A stretch of 64,000 bases of DNA. Origin: Patescibacteria group bacterium (GTDB lineage Bacteria; Patescibacteriota; Microgenomatia; Levybacterales; UBA12049). Of the stretch, positions 10,962 through 64,000 are shown piece by piece (position 1 is the stretch's first letter; each line of letters opens with the position of its first letter). Below the pieces are notes generated by a model, which made no database searches, was not told where the DNA came from, and was given only the letters and a program-made list of their open reading frames with translations. Where the stretch lies: the NCBI GenBank assembly GCA_038063415.1, contig JBBTVD010000009.1, forward strand, positions 15,430-79,429, in the 5' to 3' direction. Both the position numbers and the translations under genes were made by a program.

Positions 10962-11666
10962 ATGAAAAACGTAAAATATAAAATATTTGTATTACATGGA
11001 TGGGCTTACTCAACAGAAAAGTGGCAGCCATTTCTGACATTACTTAAAAAACAAGGAATTGAGCCTGTTATGCTCCAGATTCCTGGACTCACTGCACCTC
11101 TGGAAGAGGTATGGACGCTTGATAACTATGTCTCTTGGCTCAAAAAAAGTGTCGAAAAAGAAAAGGGGAAAGTAATCTTACTTGGGCATTCCAATGGAGG
11201 AAGAATTGCGATTTCCTTTGCTGCAAAATATCCAGAAAAAGTTGCGCAGCTAGTACTTATTGATAGCGCCGGTCTGTATCACAAAGAACTATTGCTCCAA
11301 ATTAAACGGGCGGTGTTTCAAACAATTGCAAAAATAGGCAGAAAGTTACATAAATCAGATCATCTACGGTATTTACTCTATCGATTTGCTCGTGAAAATG
11401 ATTATTATCGGGCAAATCCCGCTGTCAGAAAAACAATGCATAATTTGATCAAAGTTGATCTTTCGCCATTACTTCCACAAATAGTAATTCCTACGCTTAT
11501 TATCTGGGGGCAGGATGATAAAGTGACGCCGGTTATCGACGGGGAAAGAATGCAAGCGCTTCTGCCAAACGCTCGTCTGCATATTGTTAACGGTGCACAT
11601 CATTCACCACAATTTACTCATGAAAAAGAAGTAGCGGCTATCATCACTCAGGATTTAGAAAAATGA
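10962..11666 (+). CDS. alpha/beta-hydrolase fold protein
   Basis: 234 aa. Nucleophile elbow LLGHSNGG (G-H-S-x-G) and C-terminal DDKVTP..H pattern consistent with a Ser-Asp-His triad. Confidence 0.65.
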   Translation: MKNVKYKIFVLHGWAYSTEKWQPFLTLLKKQGIEPVMLQIPGLTAPLEEVWTLDNYVSWLKKSVEKEKGKVILLGHSNGGRIAISFAAKYPEKVAQLVLIDSAGLYHKELLLQIKRAVFQTIAKIGRKLHKSDHLRYLLYRFARENDYYRANPAVRKTMHNLIKVDLSPLLPQIVIPTLIIWGQDDKVTPVIDGERMQALLPNARLHIVNGAHHSPQFTHEKEVAAIITQDLEK

Positions 11667-12877
11667 TTACTTTTAACTCGCTTGGTTCCAATTATGATTA
11701 TCAGTTTGCTCGCATGGCAGTATTTGCCCGAAATGAGCAAAAATATAGTGAGCAATTGCAGGAGTATTTACAAAAGAAATATACAGGAGAAGTAGCTCTT
11801 GTGTATAAAGGTCGGGAAGCATTACGACTAGCCCTTCGTCTTATCAAAGATTCTGGGCAAGCCAGAATGACGAAAGAACCTCTTGTTGGTATCTGTGGTT
11901 ATACGTGCTTTGCTGTTTATGATGCCGTAATCAAAGAAGGCTTTGGCGTTACCTATTTGGATATTGATGCCAAAAGTTTACATTTTTCTCTTGCAACGTT
12001 AAAACAAACAGTAAAGGAAAACCCTCAATTAAAAATTCTCATCATTCAAAATACGCTTGGCTATCCATGTGATATGGTAGGTATCCATAAATTTTGTCAG
12101 GAGAAAGGGATTATTCTGATCGAAGACCTTGCACACGCAATAGGTTCAACGTATGCAAACGGCAGGGAAGCGGGGACAGTAGGTGATTTTGTCGCACTCT
12201 CTTTTAGTCAGGATAAAATGATTGATGGCGTTACTGGTGGAGCGCTTGTCGTCAGAAATCAAAAGTATGCCAAGCTTTTGCAGAAAGAAACTTTTGTCAA
12301 AGTAGGGGAGTGGAAACAACTCATTGATCGACTGTATCCACTCTTTACCGTGGCAATACGAAAGACATATGGAGTTGGTTTGGGGAAGATTCTCCATCAT
12401 CTGCTGAGGAAATCAGGTCTTTTGGCGAGGCCAATGGATGAAAGTACCCAGATACAAACACTTTCACCGTGGTACTGTCTCTTGATTTATAGTGCTTTTT
12501 TGGATCTTGAGAGCAATCGGGAACACAGGAGAAAGATAGCAAGGATTTATCGGGAAGTGATTGATTCTCGGATACAGTTACGACTTGCTCTGTCTCGTAG
12601 TGCCAATTTGCGATTTCCTCTTCTGGTTCCACAGCGAGAAAGTCTCATTGCTTACTTAAAAAACTCTGCTGTTTTTGTCTCTGACATTTGGTATGATGCT
12701 CCTATTGGTCCAAAAAAATTCATGCAATGGACCAATTACCAGCAGGGACTCTGTCCAAATGCCGAAAAAATAGCCGACAAGATGGTCAATCTCCCTACAC
12801 ATAAAAATATCTCACAAGCACAGGCCAAACGGATTGCACAGCTTGTAAATAAATGGCTAAAAGCAAATTATGAATAA
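11663..12877 (+). CDS. DegT/DnrJ/EryC1/StrS-family PLP-dependent sugar aminotransferase
   Basis: 404 aa. Block LIEDLAHAIGSTY..G...G..GDFVALSFSQDKMIDGVTGGALVV matches the family core including the PLP-lysine region. Its start overlaps the upstream gene by 4 nt. Confidence 0.7.
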   Translation: MITFNSLGSNYDYQFARMAVFARNEQKYSEQLQEYLQKKYTGEVALVYKGREALRLALRLIKDSGQARMTKEPLVGICGYTCFAVYDAVIKEGFGVTYLDIDAKSLHFSLATLKQTVKENPQLKILIIQNTLGYPCDMVGIHKFCQEKGIILIEDLAHAIGSTYANGREAGTVGDFVALSFSQDKMIDGVTGGALVVRNQKYAKLLQKETFVKVGEWKQLIDRLYPLFTVAIRKTYGVGLGKILHHLLRKSGLLARPMDESTQIQTLSPWYCLLIYSAFLDLESNREHRRKIARIYREVIDSRIQLRLALSRSANLRFPLLVPQRESLIAYLKNSAVFVSDIWYDAPIGPKKFMQWTNYQQGLCPNAEKIADKMVNLPTHKNISQAQAKRIAQLVNKWLKANYE

Positions 12878-14482: not shown

Positions 14483-14567
14483 TGCCGGGAGGGGGAGTCG
14501 AACCCCCACGGAGTGTAATCTCCAAAGGTTTTTGAGACCTTCGTGTCTGCCATTCCACCACCCCGGC
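14483..14567 (-). tRNA. tRNA-Leu (anticodon CAA), class II with long variable arm
   Basis: The minus-strand read gives acceptor stem GCCGGGG/TCCCGGC, anticodon stem AAGGT/ACCTT with loop CTCAAAA (anticodon CAA), a long variable arm, T-arm GGGGG-TTCGACT-CCCCC and discriminator A. No encoded CCA. Confidence 0.8.
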
Positions 14568-16297: not shown

Positions 16298-16300
16298 GCC

Positions 16301-16364
16301 GTCATTCTGGCTCGTCCAGAATCAGTAAAAAGATCCTGGATGCACTTCGCTTACCAGGATGACG
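16301..16364. repeat. palindromic MITE/REP-like element, subfamily A (GTCATTCTGG-loop-CCAGAATC hairpin plus GATCCTGG..CCAGGATGAC hairpin)
   Basis: It starts 4 nt after the pepA stop. Termini are GTCATTCTGG ... CCAGGATGAC. Confidence 0.75.
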
Positions 16365-16388
16365 ATTTAAAAGATAGGAAGAATAATT

Positions 16389-16958
16389 ATGATTTCAGTT
16401 ACCGAACTTCGCGCAGGCACAACATATCATGAAGACGGGCAATATCTCGTTGTTTTGTCTTACGAGCATATCAAGATGGGGAGAGGAAGCGCCAACATCA
16501 AGGTAAAAGTCCGCAACATCAAAACAGGAAGTAACGTCGAAAAAAGCTACATCAATGGGGCTAAAGTCCAAGACGTCCACGTCCTCAAAAAGAATATGCA
16601 ATATCTCTACAAAGATGATGAAGCGGTTTATTTTATGGATCCAAACACCTATGAACAGGTTAGCATTGCACTTAAATTAGTCCCTGAGCATGCTTATTTA
16701 AAAGAAGGAGAAGAATTTACGGTAAGTTTCCTTGAAGGGGAACCTTTTGCGCTGTTACTTCCACCCAAAATGGTATTTCGTGTCGCAGAGACAGCTCCCG
16801 GAGCCAAAGGAAATTCCGCAACCAATGTTTTTAAAGAAGCAATTCTCGAAAATGGTCTTAAAACTCGAGTGCCACTTTTTATTGACACGGATGAATATAT
16901 CCGGGTTGATACTCGGACAGGAGCCTACTGTGAAAAGGCTCAAGCAACCGAAAAATAA
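16389..16958 (+). CDS. efp: elongation factor P
   Basis: 189 aa. Matches the EF-P three-domain pattern including K..GKG.A..K.K and the C-terminal VPLFI...IRVDTRTG.Y..R. Confidence 0.9.
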   Translation: MISVTELRAGTTYHEDGQYLVVLSYEHIKMGRGSANIKVKVRNIKTGSNVEKSYINGAKVQDVHVLKKNMQYLYKDDEAVYFMDPNTYEQVSIALKLVPEHAYLKEGEEFTVSFLEGEPFALLLPPKMVFRVAETAPGAKGNSATNVFKEAILENGLKTRVPLFIDTDEYIRVDTRTGAYCEKAQATEK

Positions 16959-29055: not shown

Positions 29056-31233
29056 TCAACTTCTTTTTTTTGAGTATCCTAACTCCCACTCTAACTGAGA
29101 AATAGCCCCTTCTGCTTTAGCTATTAGGGAAGCATGTTCTGTTGAATCCAGTAGTGCTATAAATTGACGATATGACTCAATCGCCTCTTCTGGCCTGCCG
29201 AGAAAAACAAGGGTACTCCCTCTATTATAATAAGGAGGGGCAAAATGACTATCAAGAGCAATTGCTTGATCATAATCATGTAGCGCTTCCTCTGGCTGAT
29301 TGAGACGTTTAAGAACATTCCCTCTATTATAATAAGGAGGGGCAAAATGACTATCAAGAACAATTGCTTGATCATAATCATGTAGTGCTTCCTTTAGACG
29401 TCCAAGACGCAAAAGAGCATTGCCTCTATTGTTATAGAAGGTAGAAAAATGCGGGTTGAGAGCAATTGCTTGATCAAAGGCTACCAATGCCTCCTCTGGC
29501 TGATTGCTCTCAATGAGGGTATATCCCACGTTATTAAGTAGTTGTATATCCTGTCCATATTCTGATTGAAAGAGTGTGACAGAATTCAGTAGTCCTTCCC
29601 TGATCCATTTTGGCATCTCACTCCATGGCATCTCAGAGGTTTGTAGTTCAAACGAAATTCCCCTTGGATCAGGATTGTGGGCAAACGCAACTAAGTCAGC
29701 AACCGTCGTTTGTGTACCATCGTGATTAGTTCCGAAAATCATTTTGTTCGTGAGTCGCCCATTCAGTGAAGGTTTTAGCATGTCCCGCCATTCGATGTTC
29801 CCATCACTGGTTACCAAAAAAAGCAGCGAATGTTCCGGAACATTACCCACCAAATACCTGAGCCCTGCCTCCTGCATTAAAGCTCCACCAAGTTCTGAGG
29901 CACCAACACAATTTACACACTGCGTTGCAAGAGCTTTTTTGGGAGTATCTGCATCTTCGTTACGAGGATAGCTGCTTACCACTTGCTGAATGAGATCAGC
30001 AATTTTCCGTTCTTTTTTACTGATTGCTGCTCTGTCTTTTGTTTGCCTGACAGTTTCAAGCTCTACCCGCAGCCGGTCTATTTGTACCGCTTCACGCAAA
30101 GTTTCTTCACCATCTCTCCAATGTAGATGAGTATGCCTTACTGAATCAGGAAGCTTATCAAGTGGCATAGTGTCTGCGAGTAACTGCATACCTCTACGAA
30201 AAACAGCGTTAACTAGCTCCCGCCGCGGGGCTTCCATAGGTTTCTCTAGTGCTTTTTCTACTTTATTTAAAAACGTGCTATGAATCGGTGTGTCACTTCG
30301 ACGTGATCTTGCTTCCTGCTCAGTATGAGAATCATGAGGAACAGTCCGTAATTCTCCACGTGCTTCCCGCTGTTGTAGTGTGAATGATAACTCCGCTATT
30401 CTGAAAAAATGTGCTATCTTCTCTGAACGATACTCCTCATCTCCCATGATTGGTTCTTGTGGTCTTTGTCTATATGCCTCTTTTCTTACTGCATGGACAA
30501 GCACATTGCGTTGAGGAAGCATCATCTGGATCGCTCGATAGCTTTTCACCTTTGCTTCGTCTACTCTTGATGCAGGATCTGTCAGAAAAGAAAGAAATTC
30601 CCTGCTCTCTTCCTCAGAAAGGATCTTCCCTGTAGTGACAAAAATGTCAAGACAGAGTGTTCTTTCAGGGGAAAGTGTTGCCTCCGCTATTGGTGGCTCT
30701 GTTCCTTTACCAAATTTAGTCCCATAAGTATATAACGCTTCTCCTAACGAACCTGCTATTTCTGCTGTGGCGTGAGCTCTTTCTCGTGTCTGATCGCTCC
30801 CTGATTTCAGCATGCCACGGCGGAGACGTTGCTGATTGATTTGCTCTACCTTGTCACGTCGGGAGTAAAAATAAACGCCTGTGTCTCGCAGGAACGTCAT
30901 CAATTCCCGCATTTTACCGGACACTTCACGTTGTCGTTCTGGTTTATCCTTAAACGTGTCTTTATCTACCTCTTCTAAAACACCAACGATATCCCACAAC
31001 TGTAATTTCTCATGCAGATATAAAATCTTTCCCCCGTTTGCTCCTTGCTCCAGTATATTGTCCTTGCTTTTTGCATCCCAAGCTTTTTTATCTATTATCT
31101 GTGGTAGGATATGATTATTTTCTGAACACCATACTGTAAAAAAGCCTCCCACTGCGGGATTACTGAAGACCCTTTGTTCAGTTTTTTCCGCAACGGCAAA
31201 TGGTACTTCTCTTCCTTTAAAAGCTTCACTCAT
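29056..31233 (-). CDS. large protein: N-terminal unknown region, central transglutaminase-like Cys-His-Asp core candidate, six C-terminal TPR repeats
   Basis: 725 aa. The C-terminal approx 200 aa are six near-identical 34-aa TPR units (..A.HDYDQAIALDSHFAPPYYNRG..L..L.R.EEA); the underlying DNA is a near-perfect tandem 102-bp repeat. The central QCVNCVGASELGGALMQEAGLRYLVGNVPEHSLLFLV..DGNIEWRD fits the C...GIP.R.V.G..P.H......W...D transglutaminase-like core pattern. Confidence 0.5.
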   Translation of the reverse strand: MSEAFKGREVPFAVAEKTEQRVFSNPAVGGFFTVWCSENNHILPQIIDKKAWDAKSKDNILEQGANGGKILYLHEKLQLWDIVGVLEEVDKDTFKDKPERQREVSGKMRELMTFLRDTGVYFYSRRDKVEQINQQRLRRGMLKSGSDQTRERAHATAEIAGSLGEALYTYGTKFGKGTEPPIAEATLSPERTLCLDIFVTTGKILSEEESREFLSFLTDPASRVDEAKVKSYRAIQMMLPQRNVLVHAVRKEAYRQRPQEPIMGDEEYRSEKIAHFFRIAELSFTLQQREARGELRTVPHDSHTEQEARSRRSDTPIHSTFLNKVEKALEKPMEAPRRELVNAVFRRGMQLLADTMPLDKLPDSVRHTHLHWRDGEETLREAVQIDRLRVELETVRQTKDRAAISKKERKIADLIQQVVSSYPRNEDADTPKKALATQCVNCVGASELGGALMQEAGLRYLVGNVPEHSLLFLVTSDGNIEWRDMLKPSLNGRLTNKMIFGTNHDGTQTTVADLVAFAHNPDPRGISFELQTSEMPWSEMPKWIREGLLNSVTLFQSEYGQDIQLLNNVGYTLIESNQPEEALVAFDQAIALNPHFSTFYNNRGNALLRLGRLKEALHDYDQAIVLDSHFAPPYYNRGNVLKRLNQPEEALHDYDQAIALDSHFAPPYYNRGSTLVFLGRPEEAIESYRQFIALLDSTEHASLIAKAEGAISQLEWELGYSKKRS

Positions 31234-35209: not shown

Positions 35210-35245
35210 GATTTAAGTATAGCAGGTTTATCTGAAGTTTGATCC

Positions 35246-35324
35246 GTCATGCTGGCTCATCCAGCATCTCTTATTGATTCTGGATGCACGCTCCGTCAGT
35301 TGTCGGATCGCTTACCAGAATGAC
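35246..35324. repeat. palindromic MITE/REP-like element (GTCATGCTGG..CCAGCATC hairpin plus GATTCTGG..CCAGAATGAC hairpin), subfamily A variant
   Basis: It lies between the aspartase stop (35340) and the EamA-like gene start. Confidence 0.7.
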
Positions 35325-35339
35325 GGTTATGAGTTAGAG

Positions 35340-36650: not shown

Positions 36651-36677
36651 TGTTTTTACATTTTGTCTTAAGCTCTC

Positions 36678-36760
36678 GTCATTCTGGCTTGTCCACTCCG
36701 ATTTAATCGGAGTCCAGAATCAAATGTGATCCTGGATGCGTTTCACTTACCAGGATGACG
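36678..36760. repeat. palindromic MITE/REP-like element, subfamily A
   Basis: GTCATTCTGGC..GTCCAGAATC plus GATCCTGGATGCG..CCAGGATGACG, upstream of the aspA start. Confidence 0.75.
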
Positions 36761-36944
36761 TTATCATATTGAACTGTACCAGAAGTAATATTGTCAAATC
36801 TTGAAAATATACATAAATGTCAGTCAAAAGTTTTGTTTGTGAGATATAATGTTTAGCGAGGACCTCTTTGTCTTTGCTCTTCAGCGATGAAGGAGAATAA
36901 AAGCATTATAGACAGAATGAAAAACGGTTGTCAAGCTCTTTATA

Positions 36945-46076: not shown

Positions 46077-47275
46077 TGCTCAGTTCATTGTTTAAAACAA
46101 AAAGATTTTTTCTTCTCCTGCTTCTTTTGCTCGTTATTTTTGTTGTCCGGCAAATTTTTCTGTCCTCTCCATCACATGAGTTAACGTATACCGTTACTCG
46201 TGGTGAGTTAGTTGACACTGTTGAGGCAAGTGGTATGTTTATGACGGCTTTGCAAAAAGAGATTTTTTCTCCGACAAAAGGGGTTATTACTCAGTTATAT
46301 GTGGTGAACAATCAGGAAGTAAAAAAAGGTGAGCCCCTCTTTCATGTCGAAAGTACCGCTACTGAAAAGGAAAAAATCACGGCACTCGCCACCTATCAAA
46401 CAGCAGTAAGTACGTTAACGACTGCTCAACAAACAAAAGAGTCCCTTGATGCTACGATGTGGACAGAACATAAAGCATTGCTTGATGCACAAAATGCAAA
46501 GAACTTTCAAGAAGATAATACGACAAATCCTGATACTGATGATACGTATACTGATTTAGAAAAAAGGAGTCTCGATTCTGCGCTTGTTCAAGCCAGAAAG
46601 GACTTTGCCACGGCTGAGAAAAAATACAAAGAAGCTGACAGTGCAATTGTGGCTGCTCAAGCATCTCTTGCATCTGCAAAAAGAGTGTACGATGAAACAA
46701 AAGATGTAACTATTGCTGCTCCTGTTGGTGGGACGATCGTTAATTTGTTAAAAAAAGTTGGTGATGAAGTCTCTATCCCTGAGACATCTTCAGAATCACA
46801 ATCACAGAAAAAGCCTGTTCTCCCAGTACTCATGATTGCTAATCTAGCAAATCCAGTGATTATCGCAACGGTTAATGAATCATATATCCCTCGCATTACT
46901 ACTGGACAAAGAGTATCAGTTATCTTTGATGCACTGAAAGAAGAACGTTTTACTGGCTCGGTTGCCGAGGTAGATACGATAGGAACCGATACTGATGGCG
47001 TGGTCACCTATCAAGTTCGTATAGAATTTCCAGATATTCCTCCAACCATCCGTCCTAAAATGACAGCCATTGTGTCTATTGAGACGTTGTACAAAAGTAA
47101 TGTATTGACTGTACCTAATAGTGCGCTACTGACACAAGATGGAAAGACGTATATTAAAAAGAATGGTAAAGTGAACGAGCTAATTGCAGTTACGACTGGA
47201 AAAAGAGGAACCACAAAGACCGAAGTTACCTCAGGTCTTGAAGAAGGAGATGTCATTCTGGCAAATGTACAATGA
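46061..47275 (+). CDS. HlyD/MacA-family periplasmic adaptor (membrane fusion protein)
   Basis: 404 aa. N-terminal TM, a long coiled-coil-prone segment, and a C-terminal beta-barrel/lipoyl-like region (TVPNSAL...). It overlaps both neighbours by a few nt. Confidence 0.6.
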   Translation: MVTEIMLSSLFKTKRFFLLLLLLLVIFVVRQIFLSSPSHELTYTVTRGELVDTVEASGMFMTALQKEIFSPTKGVITQLYVVNNQEVKKGEPLFHVESTATEKEKITALATYQTAVSTLTTAQQTKESLDATMWTEHKALLDAQNAKNFQEDNTTNPDTDDTYTDLEKRSLDSALVQARKDFATAEKKYKEADSAIVAAQASLASAKRVYDETKDVTIAAPVGGTIVNLLKKVGDEVSIPETSSESQSQKKPVLPVLMIANLANPVIIATVNESYIPRITTGQRVSVIFDALKEERFTGSVAEVDTIGTDTDGVVTYQVRIEFPDIPPTIRPKMTAIVSIETLYKSNVLTVPNSALLTQDGKTYIKKNGKVNELIAVTTGKRGTTKTEVTSGLEEGDVILANVQ

Positions 47276-49257: not shown

Positions 49258-49734
49258 TTAGTGGCGTTGAAAGACTGGATGCAATGCTAACGGTTCCCTC
49301 TGTGTCGTTGCTCCCTCTCGTGAGAAAGTAACACGGGTTGCTTCAGGTTGGTACTCCGTAGGTCCTCTTGAAGGGAAAACGACATGGACACTTTCACTTT
49401 CTCCATCGTCATAAACTACAGCATCTTCCACGGTGTGAGGTTGTCTCATCCCGGCGAGAAATGTTCCTTCCCCATCAGATACTTTAATGCTACCCGCTTT
49501 AATCTTTGGATCTATAGAACTTCCTTCTACTTCGAAATAACTATTTCCAGGGTACTTCACTACTCCGATAGCGTGGGGAGCTAATCGCTTATCGGCTGTT
49601 GCATCCCTTCTCCTTGGTATTTCTACATAGGTTCCTCCTGATCTCTCAGCAATAGCGCGTAGGTTCGTACTAGTAAGACTCGCAAGGGATGGAGGATTAT
49701 CTGGATTTGGAAGTGTTGACCCATCTTCGACCAT
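49258..49734 (-). CDS. hypothetical protein (GC content visibly above local average)
   Basis: 158-aa ORF between convergent ABC and folD genes. No recognisable motif; it may be a false ORF. Confidence 0.3.
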   Translation of the reverse strand: MVEDGSTLPNPDNPPSLASLTSTNLRAIAERSGGTYVEIPRRRDATADKRLAPHAIGVVKYPGNSYFEVEGSSIDPKIKAGSIKVSDGEGTFLAGMRQPHTVEDAVVYDDGESESVHVVFPSRGPTEYQPEATRVTFSREGATTQREPLALHPVFQRH

Positions 49735-49744
49735 TATTTTGAGA

Positions 49745-50677
49745 TTATTTTAGAGTTTGCTTCTCCGCTGCAGTAATCAGGTTGTCCATAAGCATTGCTA
49801 CATTAACCGGTCCAGTACCCCCTGGAGTGGGTGTATAAAAGCCTGCAAGGTCTGCAATCTCTTCTTCCTCATAATCTCCAAATAAGTTCCCTTGATCGTT
49901 CTTATCGACTCCTACGCCGATCAGGATTACCCCTTTCCTGATGTTGTCAGCTGTGATGACGCGATGTTTGCCAACGGCCGCGATGATAACATCTGCTTGT
50001 TTGGTTAGGGTGTATGGATCTTTTGTTTTACTATCAACGATCTCTGGGGTTATACCAAGTTGTTTGAGGTAAGAAATGATAGGTCCTCCTCCTGATGGTC
50101 CCTTGCCGATGATGACGATTTTTTGCGTTTTTAGCCACATTAGAAATCCATCGGGGGCCTGCCTCTCGCTTCCCCGTCCGACGGCTTCACTCACGTCATT
50201 CGTTCCAGGCGCTCGACGGGGATCCCCTGCTCGCGTCACTCCTTGCTTTTGTGTATAAACTTCCTCCAATATCTTAACCACGGCCGGGGCAAGTGGGAGT
50301 ACAAAGGGAGATTCCGGATGGAAGCCGTCTACGTCTTTTTGTGGAGCCGTTGCAAGCTCAAGCTGTTTTTCATCAATATGCTTAGGTAGTGGCCGTTGGA
50401 TGAGTATCCCGTGGACGAATGGATCTTGATTAAGCAGAAGCACTTTTTGTCGTAACTCTTCTGTCAAGACCGACTCCTCAAATCTTAGGATAGTAACTTT
50501 TGCACCAATCAGATCAGCCTTTTTTTGCTTGAGCGTGACATAGGCTACTGAAGCTGGATTATTACCAATCAGAAAAACAACTAAATGCGGTGTTATCTTT
50601 TTCCGTTGCAGCTTAAGGACTCTTTTTGTAAGGTCAGTATAGAGCTGGTCAGCGATTGCGCGGCCGTCGAGTTTCAT
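49745..50677 (-). CDS. folD: bifunctional methylenetetrahydrofolate dehydrogenase/cyclohydrolase FolD, carrying an approx 35-codon GC-rich in-frame insertion
   Basis: FolD blocks LVVFLIGNNPASVAYV, VDGFHP, IIGKGP.GGGP, and PGGTGPVNVAML. The start is taken at MKLDGRAIA (50677). The insertion (about 50123-50239) sits between the YTQKQG and KIVIIGKG blocks. Confidence 0.8.
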   Translation of the reverse strand: MKLDGRAIADQLYTDLTKRVLKLQRKKITPHLVVFLIGNNPASVAYVTLKQKKADLIGAKVTILRFEESVLTEELRQKVLLLNQDPFVHGILIQRPLPKHIDEKQLELATAPQKDVDGFHPESPFVLPLAPAVVKILEEVYTQKQGVTRAGDPRRAPGTNDVSEAVGRGSERQAPDGFLMWLKTQKIVIIGKGPSGGGPIISYLKQLGITPEIVDSKTKDPYTLTKQADVIIAAVGKHRVITADNIRKGVILIGVGVDKNDQGNLFGDYEEEEIADLAGFYTPTPGGTGPVNVAMLMDNLITAAEKQTLK

Positions 50678-50705
50678 GTAACTTTCTGTAGCATAGCATA
50701 CATGG

Positions 50706-53273
50706 TTATGCCTGCTCAACTGCTTCGCCAACACAAGTGACGGCAGCTACACTATCTTTTTCATGGGAAAATCGCATCAGGATAACACCTTGTGTGTCTC
50801 GAGAAAGTTTTGGAATTTGTGTAATCAAGAGCTTTACGATTTGTCCGCGTCTTGAGGTAATGATAACTTCTTCACTTCCTGCAGGAATGACTTGTGCATT
50901 CACAACCTTGCCTGTACGATCAGTGACTCGTGCTACTTTGACACCTTGTCCTCCCCTGCCCTGTAGTGGGAATTGCTCAATTGGGGTTTTCTTACCCAGA
51001 CCGTTTTGCATAATCACAAAGACGTCAGCCTTGTCTCCTTTTGTAATGACATCCATACCAATCACTCGATCTGTTGCATCAATTTTAATCCCTCGGACAC
51101 CCATGGTTGGACGGCCCATTGGACGGACTGAGTCTTCTGAGAACTTGATTGACTTACCTTGTTTGGTTACAAGCAAAATTTGATTCTTCCCATCGGAGAT
51201 ATTGCTCCAGACGAGTTCATCACCTGGATCGAGTTTAATCGCGATCATCCCATTGCGGCGGATGTTTTCAAATTCACTAATACTTGTCTTTTTGACTGTA
51301 CCTTTTCGAGTGGTGAGAAAGATATAGCCGTCTTTACCCTTTGTGCTGTAAATAACGAACGATTCAACAACTTCGCCAGATTCAATATTAAGGAGGTTTA
51401 CAATAGCAGTTCCTTTACTCGTTCTACTACTTTCAGCAATTTCATAAGCTTTGAGTGCATAGGCTTTACCCTTGTTGGTAAAGAAGATGATATTGTCATG
51501 TGTCTGCGCATAGCGGATGGCTGCGATATCATCTGCTTCTTTGAGACTCATACCAGTAATCCCCTTGCCTCCACGATGTTGTGTATGGAAACTATTGATT
51601 GATTGACGCTTAATATAGCCTGTCTTGGTCAAGGTAATAACGGTTGCTTCATTTGGGATAAGATCTTCTTCTGAGAACTCCCCTACTTTACCTTTGTACA
51701 CAACGGTCCTGCGAGGATCAGCATATTTTTCTTTGAGTTTACTGAGCTCCGCTTTGATAACACCCAAGATTTTTTCAGGGTGTGCGAGTAAGTCTTCAAG
51801 GTATTCGATGGTTTCTTTTACCATCTTGAGTTCGTCTTCAATCTTTTGTCTTTCAAGCGCAGCCAGCCTTCGAAGCTGCATATCAAGGATTGCTACTGAT
51901 TGAATCTCACTCAAGGCGAATTTCGCCATCAAATTAGTTTTGGCCTCTTCCTGATTTTTTGATGCGCGGATAGTTGCGATGACTGCGTCGATATTGTCGA
52001 CCGCAATCTTAAGACCTTCCAAGATATGCAAACGAGCCTTTGCTTGCTTAAGTTCAAATTCAGTACGTCTCCGAACAACACTGTATCGATGTTTGAGATA
52101 TTCCTCAAGGATAATCTTCAGGTTTACCGTCTGAGGGGTTCCATTTACTAGTGCAACCATATTGACTGGGAAAGACGTTTGTAATTGGGTTAATTTATAG
52201 AGATTGTTGAGAACCTTTTTGGGAGAGGCATCTCTCTTGAGTTCTATATAGATATGCATACCACGACGGTCTGATTCGTCACGGAGGTCTGAAATGCCTT
52301 CAATTTTTTTATCTTTGGCAAGATCCGCAATCTTGGCAATCAGGAGTGCTTTGTTTACCTGATACGGCAGCTCTGTGACTGAAATAGCCGATTTACCATT
52401 ATTGATTTCCTCAATTTCTGCTTTTGCGCGGATAATAATCTTGCCGCGCCCAGTCATATAAGCATTTTTAATTTCTGAAAGATCATAGATTGAGCCGGCT
52501 GTTGGGAAGTCAGGTCCATTGACAAACTCAAGCAGTTCATCAATGGTAATAGCTGATGTGTCAAATACTTCACCAGAGTTTACTGGTACGACTGGAGCTT
52601 TTGGATCGGCAGCTGCAAGTTCTGCCGCTTTTTTCTCGGCTTCCTTTTGGGCTGCGGTGATCTTTCCGATCATAAAGGTAATTGCATCAACAACTTCTGA
52701 CAAATTATGTGGAGGAATCTTGGTTGCCATACCGACTGCAATACCTTCGGCTCCCATCAGCAGCAGGTTGGGAAGTTTTGCAGGTAAGAACAGTGGTTCG
52801 TCACGTGAGGCATCATAGTTTGGTCCAAAATCAACCGTTTCCTTTTCAATATCTACCATGAGCTCTGAAGTAATAGCAGCCATTCTTGATTCGGTATAAC
52901 GCATAGCCGCTGGTGGATCACCATCAACTGAACCGAAGTTACCCTGTCCATCGATCAGTGGGTATCGCATTGAAAAGTCCTGTGCAAGTCTGACGAGTGA
53001 ATCATAAATTGCTGAGTCACCATGTGGATGGTATTTACCCATAACTTCTCCTACAACCGTCGCACTTTTTTTATACTTTGCTGTATGAATGAGACCAAGT
53101 TCGTGCATCGCATAGAGAATGCGTCGGTGAACAGGTTTGAGTCCGTCACGGATATCAGGGAGTGCACGAGAGACAATAACAGACATCGCATAATTCAAAT
53201 ACGATTTCTTCATCTCTTCGGTAATGTTGGTTACCTGTAGTTTGCCAATGTTGTTGTCCATTATATTATCCAT
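50706..53273 (-). CDS. gyrA: DNA gyrase subunit A
   Basis: 855 aa. [36 protein letters not shown], and the C-terminal beta-pinwheel repeats. Confidence 0.95.
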
Positions 53274-53312: not shown

Positions 53313-53352
53313 AGATCCTGGAGTCCTTCCTTCAGTCGTCCCCAGGATGACG
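53313..53352. repeat. partial palindromic element (hairpin GATCCTGGAGTCC..CCCCAGGATGACG)
   Basis: A half-copy immediately upstream of a full copy; it shares the CCAGGATGACG terminus. Confidence 0.5.
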
Positions 53353-53369
53353 ATATTATTTCTTTATCC

Positions 53370-53439
53370 GTCATTCTGGCAAATGAACAAAGTTCATGCG
53401 TCCAGAATCAGCAATCGTCTTCGGCTTACCAGAATGACG
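53370..53439. repeat. palindromic MITE/REP-like element, subfamily A
   Basis: GTCATTCTGGC..GTCCAGAATC plus ..CTTACCAGAATGACG. It ends 6 bp from the ppa stop. Confidence 0.75.
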
Positions 53440-53445
53440 TATAGA

Positions 53446-59939: not shown

Positions 59940-61274
59940 TTACTCATAAAACTTTTTATGTTTTACTTTCTCTGGTAGAAAAGATTGTTCCTCTTTGGGC
60001 CCTACATACTTATCTGACCAGGTATATTCTTTAGCATAGCCCAGGTTCTTCATTAACTTCGTTGGAGCATTGCGGAGGTGCAACGGTATGGGTTCATTTG
60101 GGAATTCATAGACTGCTTGCTTGGCTCTGCCGAGTGCATTGGTTACTGCTCGAGACTTCTTGGCACTTGCGAGATAGACAACCACATGAGCGAGAGTGAG
60201 TTGTGCCTCAGGCATACCGATTTTGGTTACAGCTTCAAATGCCTGGTTTGCTTGAATAAGAGCTCCCCTGTCTGCCATGCCGATATCCTCTGAAGCAAAG
60301 ATTATCATACGTCTGGCGATAAACTTGGGATCTTCGCCATTTTCAAGCATGCGGGCGAGATAGTAGAGTGCAGCATCGACAGCACTTCCCCGCATCGATT
60401 TGATAAATGCACTGGTGATGTTGTAATGCTCATCTGCTTTTTTATCATAGAGTCCTGCTGATTTGGTCTGAAAGATTTCTTGAATGATTTCCACAGAAAT
60501 AACGTCATTGCGAGACTTCGAAGAAGTCGTGGCAATCTTTTTTGTATGAGATTGCTTCTCTACGCTCGCAATGACGAGAGCAGTTGTTGCAGCCATCTCA
60601 AGACCGTTGAGCATAATTCGAGCGTCACCCCCAGAGAGTCGGATAAGTAATTCTTTTGCATCAGGGGTGATGGTTTTTTTGTACTTCCCTATCCCCCGCT
60701 CTTTGTCGACAAGTGCCCGATCAATAATCTTGCCAAGGTTCGTAGGTGTAAGACTCTGGAGGACAAAAACCCGACAGCGAGAAAGAAGCGCACTAATCAC
60801 TTCAAAGGAAGGATTTTCAGTAGTCGCTCCAATGAGGATAAGGGTACCATTCTCTACATATGGCAAGAGTGTATCTTGTTGCGCTTTATTCCAGCGATGA
60901 ATTTCATCAAGGAAGAGAATAGTCATTCTGACTTGTCCAGCATCTTTTCTTGATTCTGGAGTCCTCACTTTGTTCGTCCCCAGAATGACGTTTGCTTTTG
61001 TTGCTCTTTTGTTCTCCTCCGCCTCGCGAATAATCTTCATCAGATCTGCTTTGCCTGTCTCAACAGCTGAGAGATGATGAAAATCGGCTCGTGCTGCCTG
61101 TGCAATCAGATTTGCGAGTGTTGTTTTGCCACTTCCTGGTGGTCCCCAAAAGATCATTGATGAGATGTTTCCCGTCTCAAGCATCTTTTGCAGCAGTTTA
61201 TTTTTGCCGACGAGATGCTCCTGTCCGATGTATTCTTCGAGTGTCTGTGGCCGCATTCGGTACGCGAGGTTCAT
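59940..61274 (-). CDS. rarA: replication-associated recombination protein A (RarA/MgsA AAA+ ATPase), carrying an in-frame palindromic-element insertion
   Basis: Walker A GPPGSGKTT, Walker B ILFLDEIHRW, sensor-1 GATTENP, arginine finger SRCRVF, and the C-terminal MgsA domain. About 20 extra residues (..NVILGTNKVRTPESRKDAGQV..) lie between the IREA helix and Walker B relative to E. coli RarA. Confidence 0.85.
   Translation of the reverse strand: MNLAYRMRPQTLEEYIGQEHLVGKNKLLQKMLETGNISSMIFWGPPGSGKTTLANLIAQAARADFHHLSAVETGKADLMKIIREAEENKRATKANVILGTNKVRTPESRKDAGQVRMTILFLDEIHRWNKAQQDTLLPYVENGTLILIGATTENPSFEVISALLSRCRVFVLQSLTPTNLGKIIDRALVDKERGIGKYKKTITPDAKELLIRLSGGDARIMLNGLEMAATTALVIASVEKQSHTKKIATTSSKSRNDVISVEIIQEIFQTKSAGLYDKKADEHYNITSAFIKSMRGSAVDAALYYLARMLENGEDPKFIARRMIIFASEDIGMADRGALIQANQAFEAVTKIGMPEAQLTLAHVVVYLASAKKSRAVTNALGRAKQAVYEFPNEPIPLHLRNAPTKLMKNLGYAKEYTWSDKYVGPKEEQSFLPEKVKHKKFYE
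60923..60990. repeat. palindromic MITE/REP-like element (subfamily A) located inside the rarA coding sequence, in-frame
   Basis: GTCATTCTGACTTGTCCAGCATC..GATTCTGGAGTCC..CCCCAGAATGACG. It contains a 43-bp segment identical to the holB copy. Confidence 0.75.
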
Positions 61275-63445: not shown

Positions 63446-64000
63446 TTATACTTGACTCGTGGCAAGGGAAAGTAACGTTTGTTCAATAGCAAATCGTGCA
63501 TTAACGTTGGTTGTCTTTATGGTTGTATGTAGCTCTTGGAAAGAACGCAAATATTCCGTCATTCTGGCAAGCGAAGCGCGTCCAGAATCCGTTATCGTTT
63601 GAGATTCTGGAGTCCTCACTTTGTTCGTCCCCAGAATGACGTTTGTTACCATCTCTTCTCGCATAATTCGGATCATACTGGCGATCCACGTGAGTGCTTT
63701 TTCTTTATCTTTTGCAAGGAGCTCTGCCTTTTTGAGCCGTTCCCCGATCGGCATGGTTGGTAGGCGTTCAAAAAACTCTTGAAAATCTTGTCGTTTTTTA
63801 TCAGTGAGCTTTTTTATCACCTCTGGAATAACGATCAGCTGACAGCGAGAAAGAATAGTCGGCAAAAAAGCTTCTTTTGAATCTGCGCTCAGTATCAGAT
63901 ACGTATGTTCTGGTGGCTCCTCAAGTACTTTTAGGAGGGCATTTTGTGCTTCACGGGTCAACAGTTGTGCATCATCAAGGACAATTGCTTTTTGTTTGCC
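63446..64000 (-). CDS. holB: DNA polymerase III delta-prime subunit (HolB-like clamp-loader subunit), N-terminus beyond the window end; carries an in-frame palindromic-element insertion
   Basis: AQNALLKVLEEPPEHTYLIL...LPTILSRCQ is the clamp-loader delta-prime/tau sensor-2 block. The reading frame is open to the window edge, and the peptide TNVILGTNKVRTPESQTITDSGRASLARMTE is encoded by the repeat element. Confidence 0.6.
   Translation of the reverse strand, partial: GKQKAIVLDDAQLLTREAQNALLKVLEEPPEHTYLILSADSKEAFLPTILSRCQLIVIPEVIKKLTDKKRQDFQEFFERLPTMPIGERLKKAELLAKDKEKALTWIASMIRIMREEMVTNVILGTNKVRTPESQTITDSGRASLARMTEYLRSFQELHTTIKTTNVNARFAIEQTLLSLATSQV
63558..63641. repeat. palindromic MITE/REP-like element (subfamily A) inside the holB coding sequence, in-frame
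   Basis: GTCATTCTGGCAAGCGAAGCGCGTCCAGAATC plus GATTCTGGAGTCC..CCCCAGAATGACG. The 43-bp block 63603-63645 is identical to 60952-60994. Confidence 0.75.

Follow-up and report, generated by a model that had tools for sequence, protein, structure and literature searches.

The folD gene in the stretch of Patescibacteria DNA analyzed here (64,000 nt of one contig, hereafter the window) carries, in frame and between the two domains of its product, a 90-nt GC-rich hairpin that is likely a non-autonomous palindromic repeat behaving much like the Rickettsia palindromic elements (RPEs). The family of the GC hairpin appears to be new, as does the occurrence of such elements in its hosts, whose genomes are Patescibacteria-like (candidate phyla radiation); literature searches covering Patescibacteria and the candidate phyla radiation brought up no earlier account. 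An in-frame insertion of a palindromic element had been proposed at this place by a sequence-only reading of the window, and the proposal is supported by the presence of the same element in intergenic DNA and in unrelated genes, as well as by empty sites in syntenic relatives. The host gene, the insert and the arms of the hairpin are located as follows in the window.

49745-50677, minus strand: folD (bifunctional methylene-tetrahydrofolate (THF) dehydrogenase / methenyl-THF cyclohydrolase), the host gene, 310 aa plus stop.
50153-50242, strand-neutral: GC-rich hairpin repeat in folD, 90 nt or 30 codons, matching covariance model R1 (see below) at 88.4 bits (E = 1.6e-18).
50123-50152, minus strand: native folD codons DGFLMWLKTQ, a short helix ahead of the Rossmann strand, outside the insert.
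50153-50157, plus strand: 5' arm of the terminal stem, GGGGG (consensus GGGGT); alignment columns 1-5, pairing with columns 121-125.
50171-50186, plus strand: 5' arm of the main stem, TCCCCGTCCGACGGCT, which holds CCCCGTCCGAC; columns 20-35, pairing with columns 90-105.
50187-50206, plus strand: variable apical region, overlapping CGTCATTCGTTCCAGG (50194-50209) and different in every copy.
50207-50222, plus strand: 3' arm of the main stem, AGGCGCTCGACGGGGA, which holds CTCGACGGGG at 50212-50221.
50238-50242, plus strand: 3' arm of the terminal stem, ACTCC (consensus ACCCC).

The longest folD open reading frame (ORF) spans 49745-50734 (minus strand, 329 aa) and has a GTG start at 50734 that overlaps the 3' end of gyrA (window 50706-50734); the likely start is instead the ATG at 50677, where the database protein P0001 begins. 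The resulting 310-aa FolD is identical to P0001, which comes from an NCBI metagenome-assembled genome (MAG), and the same protein occurs on three contigs (NCBI, Logan and ENA). Pfam recognizes PF00763 (catalytic, E = 6e-32) and PF02882 (NAD(P)-binding, E = 7e-32), leaving residues 136-201 of the 329-aa ORF unmatched between them; that is, the THF_DHG_CYH catalytic domain, the NAD(P)-binding domain and (see below) the FolD fold were all found. In a multiple alignment with 119 listed homologues (52-60% identical), the shortest, insert-free forms are 281-285 aa long and read ..ILEEVYxLQTKxKPSGFKxWLQSQNIVLLGKGPTGGGP, relative to which the extra residues of the window FolD, previously put at about 35, are real and amount to 30 codons. 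The interval originally given for them, 50123-50239, does overlap the insert but takes in 30 nt of native folD (DGFLMWLKTQ) and omits the last 3 nt of the element; the native residues align with SGFKKWLQSQ (xGFxxWLQxQ) of the insert-free homologues and are modeled as helix 178-183 with high pLDDT. Read on the minus strand, the insert encodes GVTRAGDPRRAPGTNDVSEAVGRGSERQAP (GVTRAG...SERQAP), placed between ..TQKQ and DGFLMWLKTQ, from which APGTNDVSEAVGR is predicted as a tryptic peptide (AGDPR is also an insert peptide); on the plus strand, the orientation with the best pairing, it reads GGGGGCCTGCC...GTCACTCC. A GC profile bore out the claim of GC-rich DNA, since the insert holds the GC maximum of the window: GC is 0.65 over 50150-50249, and the 90-mer that begins at 50148 reaches 0.689, the highest of all 90-mers in the 64 kb (window mean 0.404, sd 0.057). 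The sole other 90-mer with GC >= 0.60 belongs to a tRNA gene (14483-14567).

Members of the GC hairpin family are 84-125 nt long and contain 68-79% GC in genomes of 38-41% GC, and their consensus fold (RNAalifold) is a single long imperfect hairpin that comprises, from the outside inwards, a terminal stem (GGGGT/ACCCC), a second stem that is short and variable, the strongly conserved, extended stem CCCCRYC...GRYGGGG, and a free apex. The inverted repeat noticed from the sequence, CCCCGTCCGAC (50172-50182) and CTCGACGGGG (50212-50221), turned out to be the main stem of this hairpin and is kept in 17 copies. The main-stem helix is 97-98% paired, with compensatory changes at 4-5 pairs. The whole structure comprises 24 pairs; the proportion of paired cells is 95.8% in an alignment of 10 copies and 94.9% in one of 17 copies, with double compensatory changes at 8/24 and 9/24 pairs, respectively; when the partner was slid by 1-3 columns as a control, only about 40-50% of cells paired, and the observed values were reached by no more than 1/500 shuffles. 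The apex, by contrast with the stems, is free to vary: in two copies (L129 and L133) it is a stem capped by cUUCGg, in the L130 copy it is expanded by 35 nt, and where the window copy has CGTCATTCGTTCCAGG, other copies read CTTTGGTCGTTCCAGG, CTTCGTTCGCTCCAGG or CTTCGTTCGGTCCAGG. This internal motif is present in the window (50194-50209) and unique there, as had been noted, but its likeness to the terminus of the CGTCATTCTGG element, another palindromic repeat of the window, is a coincidence. The terminal stem of the window copy contains one G.U pair and one G.A mismatch and is thus eroded. Pairing is better on the GGGGUCCUGUC strand than on its complement (95.8% vs 88.8% of cells, with 18 vs 1 G.U cells), an asymmetry that partly follows from deriving the structure on the GGGGUCCUGUC strand and that is no more than a hint of a single-strand role; in folD, the GGGGUCCUGUC strand is antisense to the mRNA. 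Rfam 15 covariance models gave no match at E up to 10 for the window copy or for the well-formed L129 and L130 copies.

The second line of evidence is the dispersal of the element. The covariance model R1 was built from 10 copies, which score 83-104 bits in it; in total it detects 17 copies, spread over 14 loci (58-104 bits). In a control of 760 kb, mostly high-GC and with every locus pre-matched to a loose motif, only L049 was real and noise did not exceed 18.5 bits. The loose motif, TCGAGCGCCN{15,35}GTCGGRNSGGG, matched at least 120 loci in reference-genome contigs, mostly by chance in high-GC genomes; L049 is the only real copy among L006-L105 according to cmsearch, and L106-L125 were judged to be chance matches from their high-GC host organism alone. 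A stricter motif yielded two matches in metagenome contigs, namely the FolD copy of L126 and a chance match (L127), and a motif scan of viral contigs yielded none. The 32-aa window peptide had no match among protein representatives, a search that was underpowered and says nothing on absence. Chained reverse-frame translations and then a three-block profile were also searched against 5.8 billion proteins; the E-values were poor, the matching stretch being about 30 aa, yet the few matches proved on inspection to be clear carriers. The copies found outside the window include the following.

L049, intergenic: in a Patescibacteria MAG, 3' of a galU-like gene, where the DNA is AT-rich and non-coding.
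L130 10034-10158 and L133 174-264, intergenic: with a LytR_C-domain gene on one side and a convergently transcribed ykuD gene on the other, a position common to these two related genomes.
L001 15726-15809, intergenic: fills the carA-carB spacer (R1, 58 bits), in a genome that also carries a FolD copy.
L135 14831-14920, in frame: within CarB (R1, 97.6 bits).
Transketolase P0121 and P0122 (L131), in frame: reads ..GPVSLHPHPTSSVASLPAGARWGSPALATR..; the L131 DNA copy scores 76.5 bits in R1.
MnmA-like protein, in frame: two copies, confirmed in DNA.
PolA 5'-3' exonuclease, in frame: confirmed in DNA.
WecG-like protein, in frame: peptide only.
folD of L134 and L135, in frame: found by R1.

Hence, as in RPEs, a short hairpin-forming sequence is repeated (17 copies of 84-125 nt) and lies both in non-coding DNA and in unrelated genes whose frame is kept. 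The relationship between the two settings can be seen directly in the intergenic L049 copy, which when translated is 72% identical to the transketolase insert (E = 3e-11, pairwise). The L130 and L133 copies, although at the same site, differ in their apical part, and each was called as a spurious 65-aa ORF (two such ORFs, P0126 and P0128, cover intergenic copies); similarly, the gene caller set a false carB start inside the spacer element of L001. The copies in folD, carB and the carA-carB spacer are antisense to the better-pairing strand, and those in transketolase, MnmA and PolA are sense. One further candidate host, radA (P0127, L132), was not counted because, after the element (1391-1481), the 1.6-kb contig is unrelated to radA in all frames; a chimera induced by the repeat, or else truncation of the gene, probably accounts for L132.

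Within folD, the copies show that it is the nucleotide sequence, rather than the peptide, that has been preserved. A related insert occupies the same place of the linker in about 25 of 120 FolDs, where it begins with GV[AT] and ends with [RG]QDP, and the DNA of L001, L004, L005 and L126 reveals one nucleotide element, GGGGTGGC...TCGAGCGCC...GTCGGA.GGGG...GACAGGACCCC. The middle of this element is read as GDPHRAPG..SEAVGWG in frame 0 (window and L001), as GTPLERLERTKRVKPSERG in frame +1 (L005 and L126), and as GSPSSAWTE in frame +2 (P0009 and similar proteins), while the ends GV.. and ..RQDP keep a constant phase across FolD orthologues; the frame switch is due to paired 1-nt indels, a gap in one arm of the hairpin being made up for by an extra nucleotide in the opposite arm. 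Between the window and L001, the element is 79% identical (71/90) and the flanking folD only about 60-62%. The element DNA being more conserved than the flanking gene, and its middle being read in varying frames, conservation resides in the DNA and not in the peptide.

Comparison of orthologous sites adds a time dimension to these data. The window, L001, L134 and L135 have the gyrB-ppa-gyrA-folD synteny in common, and all carry the folD insert. L136 has the same gyrB-ppa-gyrA-folD order, but its 282-aa FolD has an unbroken linker (..YTGETKKKTGFEKWL..), and R1 had no match in the 20.8 kb of this locus. At carB the roles are divided differently: the CarB of L001 is empty, reading ..FALNPKRMEYYVIEVN.. 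/ ..VQFALNPKRMEYYVIEVN.. (16603-16780), whereas that of L135 reads RPKLSPES, a 30-residue element and HQDITPD at the same turn; conversely, the carA-carB spacer is filled in L001, and in L135 the two genes overlap and leave no spacer. Presence or absence thus differs between related genomes at folD, carB and the carA-carB spacer, and these occupied and empty sites imply that gains or losses of the element have occurred within the divergence time of these genomes. Descent from an ancestor shared with L001, L134 and L135 is the probable origin of the window copy, and a recent insertion is unlikely, given that the syntenic genomes carry it at the same site and in the same orientation and phase. 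Within its subtype of FolD copies (CCTGGA...GAAGCCGTCGG core: window, L001, L005 and L126), the window copy scores lowest in R1.

The site appears to be one that the fold of the enzyme tolerates. The structural modeling called for by the sequence-only reading was carried out with AlphaFold2 and a 117-sequence alignment, and gives a disordered loop between the two FolD domains: overall pLDDT is 91.9, residues 145-177 are coil (150-170 below 50), and this coil falls between helix 129-144 and the short helix 178-183 ahead of the first Rossmann strand. The best Foldseek matches are FolD structures (3p2o and 6ape), with TM scores of 0.89-0.90 when normalized by the target and 0.81-0.82 when normalized by the query, a difference expected from an unaligned 30-residue loop. 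As judged from this model, the insert is probably a floppy 30-residue surface loop, placed as RPE peptides are at a fold-compatible site (i.e., a coil between helices, with the rest of the model at pLDDT > 90). The CarB copy sits inside the NPK..YVIE turn.

We therefore envisage the following course of events. The element would have inserted into the short Lys-rich segment that links the catalytic domain of FolD to its NADP-binding Rossmann domain, and would be transcribed and translated together with folD as a disordered, Gly/Arg/Pro/Ala-rich loop of 30 residues, which the enzyme may tolerate. In essential genes, only insertions that keep the frame and are free of stops would survive, which would explain why every FolD and CarB copy measures 84 or 90 nt and has no stop in the frame used. 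If the hairpin is what the propagation machinery needs, it would also be expected that copies keep the hairpin by compensatory changes while the peptide drifts and shifts frame. The window copy would be an old, somewhat eroded member, vertically inherited within the clade that shares the gyrB-ppa-gyrA-folD synteny. As to how the element is mobilized, we can only speculate that a hairpin-recognizing, single-strand mechanism acts in trans (e.g., an HUH/Y1 enzyme) or that template switching is involved; the mild strand preference in pairing is what suggests a single-strand mechanism.

Several points weigh against this interpretation. Mobility is something that we infer only from the distribution of the copies, and translation of the insert is likewise deduced from sequence. 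No target-site duplication, no associated transposase and no clear terminal inverted repeat longer than 5 bp came to light. The in-frame status of all copies is partly a matter of ascertainment, since ORFs that are not intact go unreported by gene callers. Copies are sparse (a single one in the 64 kb of the window and two each in L001 and L135), and the apparent breadth of hosts rests on a handful of carriers and on peptide matches with weak E-values. Further, the second stem of the window copy is eroded, and shuffled versions of this copy fold just as well (z = +0.2), so that the significance of the hairpin derives from the comparison among copies and not from the window copy by itself; the L129 copy does fold better than shuffles (z = -2.9). 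Finally, all FolD copies share one codon position, orientation and phase in syntenic genomes, which fits a single ancient insertion, and if there was such a single insertion, the high nucleotide conservation would need selection or gene conversion. Synteny, subtypes and reading frames were the basis for judging between one and several insertions in folD.

Alternatively, the hairpin might be a nucleic-acid module that the host itself selects, such as an mRNA stabilizer or terminator in spacers, a translational pause or regulatory site within genes, or a protein-binding site. We regard this as improbable, albeit worth keeping in view: the nucleotide conservation (79% vs 60-62% for the host gene), the stems kept by compensatory changes, the apical cUUCGg tetraloop on the GGGGUCCUGUC strand of two copies, the strand-dependent pairing (95.8% vs 88.8%, with 18 G.U cells on one strand), the position of intergenic copies directly 3' of genes, and that of the folD copy exactly at the domain boundary would all suit such a role. 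However, transcripts carry the element in both orientations, its sites in unrelated proteins follow no common logic, and the frequent emptiness of orthologous sites means that it is dispensable; in addition, the window copy is eroded with a fold no better than shuffles, no Rfam match was obtained, and the strand asymmetry was partly built in when the structure was derived on that strand. A related but bolder possibility, to which we assign similarly low odds, is that the hairpin is the recognition module of an undescribed, hairpin-directed, single-strand mobilization or maintenance system of candidate-phyla-radiation bacteria that operates without target duplication. Selection or concerted evolution would then keep the nucleic acid even in essential genes, the element would be a recurrent source of disordered loops at domain junctions of core enzymes, and at least three unrelated repeat families would have targeted the FolD linker independently, making it a genuine hotspot.

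The remaining explanations fare considerably worse. A lineage-specific FolD loop that evolved and is kept as protein (e.g., an interaction or regulatory segment at the domain junction), unrelated to mobile DNA, is largely refuted and very unlikely, even though about 25 of the 120 FolD homologues (52-61% identity) carry the insert at the same site and four syntenic genomes have it in common. The sequence-only reading had taken a segment shared by relatives as a sign of such a loop, and relatives do share it, FolDs about 60% identical to that of the window carrying the insert at the same site, yet a loop at the protein level is not what the data support: the peptide middle is read in three frames among FolDs, the DNA is better conserved than folD, and the same DNA recurs outside folD, in intergenic spacers, CarB, transketolase, MnmA and PolA. 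Moreover, the loop is predicted to be disordered and is missing from a syntenic relative. We deem it slightly less probable still that the 90 nt are never translated, being removed from the mRNA in an intron-like manner or bypassed by ribosomes so that mature FolD lacks the loop. A stable GC-rich hairpin in a coding region would suit bypassing and some splicing systems, as would conservation at the nucleotide level, but all eight FolD and CarB copies (90, 90, 84, 90, 90, 84, 84 and 90 nt) are stop-free in the used frame, whereas stops are frequent in the unused frames and intergenic copies measure 91, 125, 91 and 84 nt, a pattern of lengths and stops expected only under translation. Neither ribozyme nor intron families matched, the element is far smaller than known self-splicing introns, and it is found both sense and antisense to transcription. 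An artefact of assembly or binning, such as a chimeric join or foreign high-GC DNA within folD, can be practically dismissed: the composition is indeed far from that of the surroundings, and the L132 radA contig goes on into unrelated sequence past the element as a chimera would, but the folD frame runs through the insert with flanks that align with FolD on both sides, the three contigs (NCBI, Logan and ENA) encode an identical protein, and independent JGI, NCBI, Logan and ENA assemblies contain the same insertion. Accordingly, a host-selected hairpin, removal at the RNA level and a loop kept at the protein level are each possible but less likely than the RPE-like repeat that we favor.

The window also contains other palindromic repeats, and the statement that in-frame palindromic elements are abundant in this genome was borne out. 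The CGTCATTCTGG...CCAGAATGACG family has 14 termini in the window (<= 1 mismatch) against 0.85 expected by chance, with copies at 11839-11876, 16300-16367, 35243-35328, 36673-36763, 47249-47269, 53314-53442, 60922-60994 and 63555-63645; its units look like two hairpins each and are mostly intergenic. An element of the CGTCAT type lies in frame in a DegT-family aminotransferase (11839-11876, within ORF 11663-12877 on the plus strand, ..LIKDSGQARMT..), and two lie in an MgsA/RarA AAA+ ATPase (60921-60995 and 60505-60577, within ORF 59940-61274 on the minus strand), where the insert peptides are ANVILGTNKVRTPESRKDAGQVRMT and, from CGTCATTGCGAG...CTCGCAATGACG, VIASVEKQSHTKKIATTSSKSRNDV. The GC hairpin resembles this CGTCATTCTGG/CGTCAT...ATGACG family in being palindromic and dispersed, in its in-frame insertions, and in the use of the same FolD linker in other relatives; however, the two are unrelated in sequence and termini, and the CGTCATTCTGG elements have ordinary GC and a two-hairpin architecture. 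The suggestion that the folD insert is a second, degenerate member of the other palindromic family of the window was thus rejected, the CGTCATTC motif being private to the window copy and blastn-short detecting no similarity beyond 9-mers between the GC insert and the CGTCATTCTGG elements.

The linker of FolD is crowded in other homologues as well. Translations of CGTCAT...ATGACG elements found there read RHPELVSGS..QHD, CHPEQSEGS..PQND, SSLRGGTTKQS..RDD and VILASEA, the last being the exact translation of window 63558-63578; a further type reads ETKGTKETKDKKTSVSSVSS (a ETKGTKETKDKKTSVSS-type insert), and still others exist. Unrelated linker inserts are carried by P0032, P0044, P0045, P0060, P0071, P0078, P0085 and P0102-P0104, and P0075, P0047, P0063 and P0081 look like eroded remnants of the GC element (GV..QDP). 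The linker looks like either an insertion hotspot or a place of unusual permissiveness. Two additional features of the window were recorded: a 158-aa ORF directly 3' of folD (49258-49734, minus strand), with no Pfam match and a GC content of 0.47-0.50, somewhat above the window mean, and a 102-nt tandem duplication (71% identical) at 29153-29356, inside a 725-aa ORF (29056-31233, minus strand).

If our interpretation is correct, the colonization of housekeeping genes by in-frame palindromic repeats, known mainly from Rickettsia, is also common in reduced, Patescibacteria-like genomes. The FolD linker, filled by at least three unrelated repeat families across lineages, may provide a good system for studying how proteins acquire loops, and the finding that insert DNA is better conserved than the surrounding enzyme-coding sequence raises the testable question of how the hairpin is maintained. 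There are practical consequences for annotation too, i.e., inflated protein lengths, spurious small ORFs (P0126 and P0128) and false start codons (carB of L001), and the inserts appear to break or chimerize assemblies (L132). The covariance model R1 could be used to mask the element, or take a census of it, in metagenome-assembled genomes.

How does the GC hairpin compare with known systems? An intein can be set aside, since inteins have splicing blocks, a junction nucleophile and a length of some 130 residues or more, and the insert has 30 residues of low complexity read in varying frames, and so can a known structured RNA, ribozyme or intron, there being no curated Rfam 15 match. Miniature inverted-repeat elements (MITEs; Correia/NEMIS, ERIC, Nezha and BOX, PMC10969869) are likewise short, non-autonomous, hairpin-forming repeats located between or occasionally within genes, where in-frame fusions are possible (PMC10969869). 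However, no flanking direct repeat of the kind left by target-site duplication was found at L049, L130, L001, the carB of L135, or folD when compared with empty sites, and among the 200 kb of DNA covered, no insertion sequence turned up that could be its parent. The ends GGGGT/ACCCC are complementary, but the element is palindromic throughout, and it forms as a whole one hairpin instead of two terminal inverted repeats around a core.

REP sequences and their mosaic BIMEs share with it the imperfect GC-rich palindrome, the dispersal, the frequent position 3' of genes, the lack of a target-site duplication and, probably, recognition of the hairpin on one strand. They differ in that REPs are 20-40 nt long and extragenic with a conserved GTAG-type head, whereas the GC element is 84-125 nt long, often intragenic and headless. 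We did consider a REP/RAYT system and rejected it on account of length, location inside genes, the missing GTAG head, and the fact that the sole RAYT-like gene is flanked by another hairpin. This gene, a RAYT-like Y1/HUH transposase (PF01797; L134 1365-2138), lies in a genome related to the window and has CCGACGTGTAGC...CACCTCCGAGGTGTT hairpins at its flanks (1400-1450 and 2128-2165), with CACCTCCGAGGTG preceded by GTAG; the unit looks REP/RAYT-like and distinct from the GC hairpin element, and it does not count as evidence for the latter.

The closest parallel remains the RPEs (Ogata et al. 2000, summarized in PMC10969869), small palindromic repeats many of which lie in frame in Rickettsia housekeeping genes, and which are about 100-150 bp long and described as encoding a conserved peptide (PMC10969869). 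The GC hairpin differs from them in its Patescibacteria-like hosts, its shorter length (84-125 nt vs about 100-150 bp), a GC content that is extreme for the genome (0.68-0.79 vs 0.38-0.41), a peptide that is not conserved and changes frame between copies, and a copy density that looks lower. Membership in RPE-1 to RPE-10, with which the element was compared by description, is therefore not what we claim; instead, the likeness appears to be one of behavior. That is, both are small palindromic repeats that lack coding capacity in their own right, are scattered through reduced genomes, lie in frame in unrelated housekeeping genes that stay intact as well as in non-coding DNA, and encode a peptide that is placed where the fold of the protein tolerates it.

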